From a virus: a stretch of 64,000 bases of DNA. The stretch spans positions 1-64,000 of the IMG/VR virus record IMGVR_UViG_3300032325_000466. One strand, given 5' to 3'. Shown here piece after piece: positions 29,764 through 31,704 of this stretch. The notes under the pieces are model-generated. The model did no database searches and was not told the origin of the DNA. It was given only the letters and a program-made list of their open reading frames with translations. Each line of letters opens with the position of its first letter. The first letter of the stretch is position 1. Position numbers and translations under genes: made by a program.

Positions 29764-29843
29764 TGGCGCATCCGAAAGGATTCGAACCTTCATGTATCCA
29801 GTTAACCTTTCAACTGGTTCGTAGCCAGAGGGTATACGGACGC
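29764..29843 (-). tRNA. Non-canonical tRNA-Arg(ACG) lacking a D-arm
   Basis: GCGTCCG/CGGATGC+GCCA, CTGG-CT-ACG-AA-CCAG, long variable region, normal T-arm. Confidence 0.75.
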
Positions 29844-29846
29844 TAA

Positions 29847-30005
29847 ATTTGTAGCCGGTGTAGACACATCGGGACATCACTCCTTCCCGCTACTCCGTTT
29901 ACCAAGAAGGCTTTTCGATAATTGTCTTGTGATAGAAGACTTTCTCTACTTTGTTTTTACAGGCCTCTGATTGTCTCTCCCACTAGACTCTGCTCCTACT
30001 ACAAA
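29847..30005 (-). ncRNA. Candidate structured RNA of about 155 nt
   Basis: TTTGTAG/CTACAAA closing stem between two tRNAs, no ORF. Confidence 0.4.
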
Positions 30006-30007
30006 AC

Positions 30008-30084
30008 TGGTGGTGATGAGTGGATTCGAACCACCGCGCATTACCTTATGAGGGTACCGATCTACCAGGCTGAACTACATCACC
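30008..30084 (-). tRNA. tRNA-Met(CAT)
   Basis: CT-CAT-AA, cloverleaf. Confidence 0.85.
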
Positions 30085-30390
30085 ATATTGAAACACACTA
30101 CCCGCATGTTATCCGGCATATCTACAAATATGTCCAACTGTTGTAGCAGTCAATGCAATGTGTTTCAATATGGTTGCCGGTTACGCGTCCGGCTTGCAAG
30201 TGTTACGCAACGCTAAATTAATTCACGATCATGTCGGGCACAATCCGAATAACCGACCTGTCTACAGGTTTCGCCTTCACCATATTGAAACACACCACCA
30301 AGCATTTCGATTGCTAATGCCGGCGCCCTTTTTTACTTTCGGAGTTGAACCGAATACCAACCCAACATGTTGGAGTAATGTGTTTCAATA

Positions 30391-30466
30391 TGGTGCCCAC
30401 CCTGAGGATTCAAACCTCAGCCTAAACAGACAAATTCTGCTGACCAGTCACTGGATCTCAGCGGGC
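30391..30466 (-). ncRNA. tRNA-like RNA with 5-nt anticodon loop (ATTTG) and extended D-stem
   Basis: GCCCGCT/GGTGGGC+ACCA, CCAG-TGA-CTGG, GCAGA-ATTTG-TCTGT, CTGAGG-TTTGAAT-CCTCAG. Confidence 0.75.
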
Positions 30467-30839
30467 ATACTTTACTACATCACCATATTGAAACACACTG
30501 CAATCATCGCTTGCTGGCATCGGTACGACCCGAGCGTATCCAGTAGTTCGTGACGAGCCGATCCTTCCAACCACTGTCGGCCACCCCTTGGGTAGGACAA
30601 TATGCTTCAATGTGGGCTCACAACTTCTACGCCAGTTCGTCACCGGTAGCCCCTTGGCTAGCAGACGCTGTAATCATCTGAGGGGTTTATGGTCTAGACC
30701 ATATTGAAACACACTTCACAATACACAGACGATCCATATGTCTTTACGATATCGTTCTTCGGGCAGAGTAAAGGCTCGTTGGCCCGATTATGTATTCTTT
30801 CTGTTACTAGCCAAGAAATATATTTCAATATAGTAACCC

Positions 30840-30968
30840 ACTGTGGGGTGGACTTCGAAACCACCAACTCGCCGCGCTTTTCCTGTTAAGCTACATACAC
30901 CGACCTTCACCGATGCTGGGAGGAATCGAACCCCATCTCTCTGCGTTTTACCTTAAACTACCACGGGT
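30840..30968 (-). ncRNA. Two tandem D-arm + T-arm units with no anticodon arm
   Basis: TAGCTT..AAGC-10 nt-GGTGG TTTCGAAGT CCACC and TAGTTT..AAAC-10 nt-GGGG TTCGATT CCTC. Confidence 0.55.
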
Positions 30969-31142
30969 CCTCGGAGTCATGACTTCCGAGAATGATAATG
31001 GTTAATTACTCCTTTACCATATATAAACACACTGCCGATTATGACACCGTTGTCCGTGTCTTACTCTAGTCATATACTATCCGTTAAGATAGTATCGTTA
31101 ATTGAGACTGCAATCAATACAACTAAACAATGTGTTTGTATA

Positions 31143-31218
31143 TGGTGGGGGCAGGGGGATTCGAACCCTCCAACTTATCGGTTAAAAGCCGAGTACTCTA
31201 CCATTGAGTTATACCCCC
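31143..31218 (-). tRNA. tRNA-Lys(TTT)
   Basis: CT-TTT-AA. Confidence 0.9.
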
Positions 31219-31272
31219 ATGGGTTTACCACTCTTATCACTAGCCATAACAGGCTCTCCTTTTAAAAAAATT

Positions 31273-31347
31273 TGGTACACCCACGGGGAGTCGAACCCCG
31301 CTTTCCGGCGTGAAAGGCCAGCGTCCTAACCGATAGACGATGAGTGC
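31273..31347 (-). tRNA. tRNA-Glu(TTC)
   Basis: CT-TTC-AC. Confidence 0.9.
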
Positions 31348-31353
31348 ATAGCT

Positions 31354-31431
31354 TGGAGTAGGGAGTCGGATTCGAACCGACGAATCAACTGGGTTGCGAC
31401 CAGTGCCATTAAGCCTCTTTGGTATCCCTAC
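31354..31431 (-). tRNA. tRNA-Cys(GCA)
   Basis: TC-GCA-AC loop (C33 atypical), U73. Confidence 0.8.
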
Positions 31432-31438
31432 ATAAATT

Positions 31439-31523
31439 TGGTGGAGCGTACTGGGATCGAACCAGTCGTGCCCGAAGGCGGCGGATTTACAGTCCACTGC
31501 ATCACCATTGATGCTTCCACTCC
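31439..31523 (-). tRNA. tRNA-Tyr(GTA)
   Basis: CT-GTA-AA, long variable arm. Confidence 0.9.
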
Positions 31524-31616
31524 GTTATTTTTGACTTATGTTTGCATACTGTATTGATTGATATGCAGAATGAGTCTTTCCTTTGATCGGCCCTGAATTT
31601 ACAGCTAGCGCGAATT

Positions 31617-31704
31617 TGGTGGGTAGTGATGGTAACGCTCCACGAGGCAACTTCCTGACTCATTATGCCGTCGGTTTTACAGACCGATGTCAGGGGCACC
31701 ACCC
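31617..31704 (-). tRNA. Non-canonical tRNA-Tyr(GTA)-like RNA lacking a D-arm
   Basis: GGGTGGT/ACTACCC+ACCA, TCGGT-CT-GTA-AA-ACCGA, CCTGAC/GTCAGG long-range pair, atypical T-arm. Confidence 0.7.

Follow-up and report, generated by a model that had tools for sequence, protein, structure and literature searches.

Background

Two putative transfer RNA (tRNA) genes in a 64,000-nucleotide stretch of viral DNA raise the question of what an apparently complete tRNA without a D hairpin could be. The stretch, called the window below, is the first 64 kb of the 191-kb IMG/VR viral record IMGVR_UViG_3300032325_000466, the completeness of which is 54% (CheckV); the DNA runs containing it are labelled as freshwater or lake metagenome. 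Both genes lie on the minus strand, tRNA-Arg(ACG) at 29764-29843 and tRNA-Tyr(GUA) at 31617-31704. The first-pass annotation of the window placed them correctly and described them as D-armless, with a short strand after the acceptor stem paired with the distal side of an expanded variable region (TAT(A)CC with GGATA in Arg; CCTGAC with GTCAGG in Tyr).

The cloverleaf follows the order acceptor, nucleotides 8-9, D hairpin, nucleotide 26, anticodon arm, variable region and T arm. To our knowledge, it is treated as universal for bacterial-type translation, the exceptions being known mainly from animal mitochondria. We report that the two genes represent two phage families with a different strand order, and we consider it probable that both encode working phage tRNAs with the core arranged in this other order. 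They are referred to as rewired genes below.

Results

The acceptor stem, the CCA and the 7-nt anticodon loops (CUACGAA in Arg, CUGUAAA in Tyr) noted before are present in both genes; the stem has 7 bp, the CCA is encoded, and a discriminator base precedes it. It was also rightly noted that the D hairpin is missing: this follows from the direct reading of the sequences and from the consensus structures. The acceptor stem and the anticodon stem are 5-9 nt apart, and no D hairpin fills the room between nucleotides 9 and 26. The Arg gene (77 nt plus the CCA at 29764-29766) reads GCGUCCG-UAUACCC-UCUGG-CUACGAA-CCAGU-UGAAAGGUUAACUGGAUACAU-GAAGG-UUCGAAU-CCUUU-CGGAUGC-G-CCA; the Tyr gene (85 nt plus the CCA at 31617-31619) reads GGGUGGU-GCC-CCUGAC-A-UCGGU-CUGUAAA-ACCGA-C...GUCAGG...ACUACCC-A-CCA. 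They score 98.6 bits with the model R1 and 105 bits with the model R2, respectively; these window scores are partly circular, as the seeds of both models include the window sequences.

ARAGORN, applied to the window, calls neither of the two genes. The YrlA (Y-RNA) module, RF02553, has no match on either of them and only weak ones elsewhere in the tRNA array (29.8 bits vs 69); anticodon arms are present in both genes, unlike the Ro-binding stem of the YrlA type. Both elements are far beyond chance, with many homologues and compensatory changes in every stem.

The Arg/Ile family

When the whole array was compared with cultured phages by megablast, almost nothing matched besides the 77-nt Arg stretch. 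It was found at 89-94% identity in unannotated spacers within the tRNA arrays of Streptomyces BE-cluster and Microbacterium phages. Blastn, the homologues from which are independent of the R1 seed, added a 462-kb uncultured phage and Trina, a phage of Rhodococcus in which the element bears the label 'tRNA-OTHER'. In IMG/VR, 16 loci were found by a 29-nt core pattern and 82 by a looser one. The covariance model R1, built from 25 sequences, recovers 96 copies, or 77 distinct sequences, at 44-99 bits, with canonical tRNAs in the same DNA scoring at most 32 bits; ARAGORN calls none of the 96. Among 185,579 prokaryotes (one genome per species), there were 31 pattern matches, approximately the number expected by chance, and two of them score as family members, both on short contigs of metagenome-assembled genomes; the family is therefore essentially viral.

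The window gene fits the family pattern, which consists of U8A9-N, a 3-bp strand, C, the anticodon arm, UGAAA, the return strand, UAAYUGGN...CAU and the T arm. Its acceptor stem (5' strand 29837-29843 paired with 29768-29774; discriminator G at 29767) is 99.4% paired in the family, and 7/7 pairs change on both sides. The T arm GAAGG-UUCGAAU-CCUUU (29775-29791) is 99% paired with four covarying pairs; all T loops of the family fit the canonical UU(C/U)RANN, and the acceptor/T split is the normal 7/5. In the anticodon arm UCUGG-CUACGAA-CCAGU (29813-29829, with ACG at 29820-29822), covariation is seen at four pairs, and U.U predominates at the top one.

The unusual part lies between these arms. 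The nucleotides U8 A9 U10 (29834-29836) are followed by A11 C12 C13 (29831-29833), the first strand of a helix designated H. The return strand, GGU at 29805-29807, is located just 3' of the segment UGAAA (29808-29812), which occupies the variable-loop position as the 5 nt that link the anticodon stem to the return strand and is found in 69 of the 77 distinct sequences. Pairing in helix H is complete (100%), and 3/3 of its pairs are changed on both strands, both in the covariance-model alignment of the 77 distinct sequences and in a structure-blind MAFFT alignment; its variants include ACC/GGU, CCG/CGG, CUC/GAG, UCC/GGA, CCC/GGG and CAG/CUG. RNAalifold predicts it unaided.

The return strand is followed by a displaced segment that resembles a D loop, UAACUGGAUA, and then by CAU (29792-29804 together); it contains GG at 29798-29799 and an A20-like base at 29797. 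Throughout the family this distal part has the form UAA-YUGG-N...CAU, in which UAA and GG are near-invariant. It is similar to canonical D loops of the same phage (AAUGGAUA in Arg(UCG), AGUUGGUUA in Ile(GAU)). A local 8-bp hairpin, CCAGUUGA/UUAACUGG, which appears in the minimum free energy fold of the Arg RNA, was discarded; its pairing is lost in the homologues.

The distal Arg helix proposed in the first-pass annotation, TAT(A)CC with GGATA, did not survive the comparison: the strands are complementary in the window sequence, but across from the invariant U8 A9 U10 the distal segment is free to vary, with A9 unpaired in 43/74 sequences and U10 in 25/77. Four changes of C13 to G occur without an answering change at the proposed distal partner and are answered at the proximal one. 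The true partner of nucleotides 11-13 is the proximal GGU at 29805-29807.

The Tyr family

Relatives of the phage were reached through the HNH endonuclease gene of the array; they carry the Tyr element at 92.6% identity, with pair-preserving changes. In IMG/VR, 21 loci were found by the invariant 3' domain of the element and more by a 5' pattern, while an exact 24-mer of the 5' half had no match there; blastn of the Tyr region against cultured phages gave nothing useful.

In this family, the helix proposed earlier holds: CCUGAC (31689-31694) and GUCAGG (31654-31659, within the variable region) are 100% paired in 17 distinct sequences, and 3/6 pairs are changed on both sides. The changes concern the inner pairs (CG/UA/GC, UA/GU/GC and AU/UA/CG), the variants being CCGGUC/GAUCGG, CCCGAC/GUUGGG, CCUUAC/GUAAGG, CCCUAC/GUAGGG, CCUUUC/GAAAGG and CCCUCC/GGAGGG. 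The acceptor stem is likewise 100% paired and covaries. The stem of the anticodon arm UCGGU-CUGUAAA-ACCGA (31671-31687, with GUA at 31678-31680) covaries as well, and its loop is always CUGUAAA. The acceptor and T stems comprise 7 plus 4-5 bp, the T stem of the window gene having 4 bp, and the 3' domain is near-invariant in sequence across the family. The window gene fits the R2 pattern of G8-NN, a 5-7-bp strand, the anticodon arm (GUA), GGC..., the return strand, NRGUN, GCC and the T arm.

Three divergent members, L019, L101 and L011, came from the search with the model R2; they have the T loop UUCGAYU and a GG directly after the return strand (CGGUU, UGGUG and CGGCU). The subfamily of the window has AAGUU, without GG, after the return strand, and its T loop is AGCGUUA; the T arm of the window gene, GUGG-AGCGUUA-CCAU (31629-31643), aligns in spite of its non-canonical loop with the canonical T arms of the three. 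The state of the window subfamily would correspond to the replacement of G:U by A:G at 18:55 and of U:A by A:U at 54:58. Such a two-state pattern is only a hint that the elbow contact may be kept with other bases.

An additional stem similar to a variable arm, GGC(A)/(U)GCC (31666-31669 with 31646-31649), is invariant in 19/20 distinct sequences and reads GCAC/GUGU in L011. It crosses helix H, so that a pseudoknot would result; this putative stem is weakly supported.

The array contains another Tyr gene at 31437-31521 (minus strand), an ordinary class-II tRNA-Tyr(GUA) that folds as a cloverleaf and scores 32.3 bits with the Rfam tRNA model; it was missed by ARAGORN. The array consequently has two Tyr(GUA) genes of different build. 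Elsewhere, ARAGORN calls a canonical Tyr gene in a single contig holding the family, a count limited by the fact that the program can miss such genes, as in the case of 31437-31521. That contig, which contains the loci L095 and L131, carries a degenerate rewired Tyr copy (L095 12529-12614) that has lost the anticodon arm and retains helix H (CCUAAC/GUUGGG), the 3' domain and CCA.

The common plan

The earlier claim of a recurrent and selected non-cloverleaf layout is supported for both genes: the strand that comes next to the acceptor stem finds its partner beyond the anticodon arm, on the 3' side. Members of both families begin with the acceptor 5' strand, 2-3 nt, the first strand of H, one base and the anticodon arm; a variable-type segment leads from there to the second strand of H, which is followed by a D-loop-like segment, the T arm and the acceptor 3' strand. 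Helix H has 3 bp in Arg/Ile and 5-7 bp in Tyr; the variable-type segment comprises 5 nt (UGAAA) in the class-I Arg/Ile members and is longer in the class-II-like Tyr members.

We presume that the piece composed of the D-stem 5' strand and the D loop (nucleotides 10-21) has been moved behind the variable region. The second strand of H and the loop after it would take the place of nucleotides 10-21, and the first strand of H that of nucleotides 22-25. In Arg/Ile, H and the anticodon stem could stack to about the usual length, and the displaced loop would still present its GG to a normal T loop.

The term "D-armless" is consequently misleading, since a helix similar to the D stem and a GG-bearing segment similar to the D loop persist in a different strand order. 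One may still propose tRNAs that truly lack the D arm, in which the 5' linker is paired with the distal side of an expanded variable region (UAU(A)CC with GGAUA in Arg) and which were selected to escape nucleases reading the elbow. The Arg complementarity in the window, the far-side helix that is real in Tyr, the altered T loop and the segment devoid of GG in the window Tyr subfamily, and the RNA ligase of the phage, of a class associated with tRNA repair in T4, are in its favour. The Arg pairs at positions 9, 10 and 13 nevertheless fail as described above, and the Arg/Ile members conserve GG and a canonical T loop, so the elbow is likely kept. D-armless tRNAs of the mitochondrial type are not what the Arg/Ile members resemble either, as they retain these two elements in a full-length RNA. 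We regard this proposal as improbable to a high degree.

Strain variation

Where the Tyr gene is spanned by contigs of other lake samples, none of the differences listed falls within it, and the spacer upstream of it varies. In two DNA runs, contigs join 29754 to 29845 and skip 29755-29844 with the Arg gene, so some strains are without this gene or have a replacement. One more contig has the rewired Arg gene in a different context.

The skipped Arg gene and other odd tRNA-like pieces of the array (30394-30470 and 30830-30965) could be taken to mean that we deal with decaying tRNA pseudogenes or with fold artefacts in a messy array. Such an origin is hard to reconcile with about a hundred copies, compensatory changes in every helix, a clean score gap and a Tyr gene with none of the listed strain differences next to a variable spacer; conservation together with covariation makes it very unlikely.

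Anticodons and decoding

The anticodons of the Arg/Ile family are either of the Arg type (ACG, UCG, UCU, CCU) or of the Ile type (GAU, UAU, CAU): among the 77 distinct sequences, ACG occurs in 40, GAU in 13, UCU in 10, UCG in 5, UAU in 4, CCU in 3 and CAU in 2. They are always placed in a 7-nt loop with U33, and A37 is present in all sequences except one. The base after GG is A in 53/58 Arg sequences and U in 16/17 Ile sequences; the discriminator N73 is A in 19/19 Ile/CAU members and can be any of G, A and U in the Arg members. The ArgRS of E. coli relies on A20 as its main determinant in the D loop, and IleRS on A73 as one of its determinants. The observed bases correspond to these determinants, which fits real charging and also fits GGN being read as G18 G19 N20. 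In a FastTree tree of the 77-nt family, Ile members are scattered among Arg members; as the family is too short and the tree unsupported, the anticodon switches cannot be ordered.

Annotation of the Streptomyces phage Mildred21 (locus L183) suggests a different anticodon. Its rewired Arg(UCG) gene (L183 21368-21443) is labelled tRNA-Phe(gaa) in GenBank, its rewired Arg(UCU) gene (L183 16380-16454) tRNA-OTHER, and its rewired ACG and Ile(GAU) copies are unannotated. The feature SEA_MILDRED21_169, tRNA-Phe(gaa), coincides exactly with the family member, as if the hairpin were not the anticodon arm and the conserved UGAAA held a GAA (Phe) anticodon. The UGAAA segment, however, is not flanked by a stem; the loops of the hairpins follow the form YU-NNN-AA with triplets that track the A or U after GG and N73, and the loop in this very copy reads CUUCGAA, i.e., UCG. 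A Phe anticodon is accordingly given next to no credence. As a separate observation, a gene of the phage A3Wally that ARAGORN calls Arg(ACG) carries the label 'tRNA-Thr(acg)'.

Canonical isoacceptors were counted in those non-redundant loci that have 12 or more canonical tRNAs. Of the arrays with a rewired ACG gene, 0/13 also have a canonical ACG tRNA, vs 7/10 of the arrays without it (Fisher p=5e-4); for GAU, the corresponding counts are 0/6 vs 14/17 (p=8e-4); these p-values overstate the independence of the loci, which are partial and phylogenetically related. Three of the 96 copies have a canonical tRNA with an identical anticodon in their own locus. In the 191-kb record, the rewired gene is the only ACG tRNA, and 50% of the Arg codons are CGU, CGC or CGA. 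In Mildred21, the sole canonical Arg tRNA is CCU; ACG, UCG and UCU are provided by rewired genes alone. The mutual exclusion with canonical isoacceptors indicates that the rewired genes most likely decode. The RNAs would be processed, the host ArgRS or TyrRS would charge them, and ribosomes would use them; in the window Arg tRNA, A34 would be converted to inosine, which would allow CGU, CGC and CGA to be read.

The RNAs could instead be non-decoding tRNA mimics: decoys or sponges for host toxins targeting tRNAs or for modification enzymes, or handles for a phage protein. The cores are near-invariant across very different phages, rewired and canonical isoacceptors coexist in some phages, and the degenerate Tyr-like copy described above persists without its anticodon arm, all of which such a role would accommodate. 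It would leave unexplained the exclusivity with canonical isoacceptors in the arrays, the variation of anticodons on a fixed scaffold and always in proper 7-nt loops, the identity bases that track the anticodon, and the covariation of the anticodon stems. We therefore consider mimicry improbable.

Several points weigh against the reading of the genes as working tRNAs. With the Rfam tRNA model RF00005, the Arg gene reaches 27.3 bits where the gathering score is 29, and the rewired Tyr gene has no match at E up to 10. The relatedness and incompleteness of the loci weaken the counts of exclusivity, and both ACG forms are present in the Microbacterium phages Zooman and A3Wally, as are both Ile(GAU) forms in Mildred21. 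The normal Tyr(GUA) gene of the window means that the rewired one is not needed to complete the set. The constraint on the core exceeds the needs of the helices in both families (in Arg/Ile, a near-invariant core of 35 nt surrounds the anticodon arm), and there could be another ligand. The equivalence of the rearranged part to the D arm in three dimensions is argued from strand polarity and lengths, and the evidence on both families is at the level of the DNA sequence.

The tRNA array and its surroundings

The array extends on the minus strand from about 25.1 to 35.7 kb and includes 26 tRNAs according to ARAGORN. All tRNAs of the 191-kb record are inside it; the record also has one permuted transfer-messenger RNA. 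The neighbouring genes encode the HNH endonuclease, a ribonucleotide reductase, an RNA ligase and a CDA-fold deaminase. The RNA ligase (16718-17752, minus strand; PF09414 and the PHA02142 OB domain) belongs to a class of genes that serve tRNA repair in phage T4. The deaminase frame (24275-24757, minus strand) lies directly beside the array and has a generic CDA fold; it was considered as TadA and rejected as not recognisable as such, so no link to the editing of A34 can be claimed.

Some other genes of the array are unusual in their own right. In tRNA-Leu(UAA) (27790-28095, minus strand), which ARAGORN does not call, the anticodon loop is interrupted by a group I intron (Rfam Intron_gpI at 27847-28045, 58.8 bits); the joined exons read ...GAGGA-CUUAAAA-UCCUC.... 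A paralogue of the adjacent tRNA-His at 29501-29574 (minus strand) reads UCCGG-GUUUAUUG-CCGGA, with an anticodon loop that is not 7 nt long, and is assigned a 2-base anticodon by ARAGORN. The gene-like element at 30394-30470 (minus strand) has an acceptor stem, a T arm with the loop UUUGAAU and CCA, is called by no tool, and has an odd anticodon region, AAUUUGU, without U33; a further odd tRNA-like piece is found at 30830-30965.

Cassettes bounded by inverted copies of CCATATTGAAACACAC are located between tRNAs at 30086-31147 and from 31897 on. One strain contig from another lake sample precisely lacks the cassette 30482-30697, with 18 letters common at the joint. The tRNA-Asn at 32961-33041 (minus strand) has a long extra arm and scores best with the tRNA-Sec model (26.6 bits); similarly, a tRNA-Ile(UAU) with a long extra arm occurs in the relative L097 (L097 11375-11469 and 11478-11562 are listed alongside the window tRNA-Asn). 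These Asn and Ile tRNAs are 81-95 nt long, which is unusual for their specificities.

Discussion

The rewired genes share with canonical bacterial and phage tRNA-Arg, tRNA-Ile and class-II tRNA-Tyr (RF00005) the 7-bp acceptor stem, the 5-bp T stem (4 bp in the window Tyr gene), the 7-nt anticodon loop, the discriminator and CCA, as well as the D-loop-like GG with A20 in Arg and the location inside tRNA arrays. They differ in the position of the D-stem-like helix, the strands of which flank the anticodon arm, and in that of the D-loop-like segment, which comes after the helix.

Permuted and split tRNA genes (Cyanidioschyzon, Nanoarchaeum) also depart from the segment order of the cloverleaf, and RNA processing restores the normal cloverleaf from them. 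In the rewired genes, by contrast, the acceptor 5' strand comes first and the 3' strand with CCA comes last, and a simple circular permutation cannot convert them into a cloverleaf.

D-armless mitochondrial tRNAs, such as the tRNA-Ser(AGY/UCU) of animals, are similar in having no D hairpin and in the connector pairing that effectively lengthens the anticodon helix. Mitochondrial D-armless tRNAs are truncated, with a connector in place of the D arm (PMC7609411); the phage genes are of full length (77-88 nt), keep the GG segment and the canonical T loop (in Arg/Ile), and belong to phages of bacteria. The same review of non-canonical tRNAs makes no mention of phages (PMC7609411). Allo-tRNAs with 8/4 or 9/3 stems are known from bacteria and phage tRNA clusters, and Arg and Ile anticodons occur among them (Mukai et al. 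2017, PMC5389517); they alter the acceptor/T split and retain the D hairpin, whereas the rewired Arg/Ile genes have the normal 7/5 split and an altered D region. No description of the rewired build was found in the full-text literature searched, which included PMC7609411 and PMC5389517; this absence is limited to that collection.

It is attractive, and for the present speculative, to go further and suppose a second tRNA topology outside organelles, which host ArgRS, IleRS and TyrRS charge and bacterial ribosomes use, and which phages might keep and exchange as an escape from readers of the D hairpin or elbow, be it a host defence that cleaves or modifies tRNAs or the phage's own attack on host tRNAs. 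We find this extended scenario rather unlikely as a whole. In Arg/Ile, the conserved GG and canonical T loop do not suggest evasion of elbow readers.

The comparison suggests that two tRNA families with another strand order serve phages of widely different hosts, namely Streptomyces, Microbacterium, Rhodococcus and lake bacteria. It also means that tRNA repertoires of phages are under-counted and mis-annotated, ARAGORN having called 0/96 copies and one copy having been filed as tRNA-Phe. The requirements of ArgRS, IleRS, TyrRS, RNase P, EF-Tu and the ribosome for the wiring of the D arm become testable; since Streptomyces and Microbacterium phages that can be cultured carry these families, direct tests of charging, structure and fitness are feasible.

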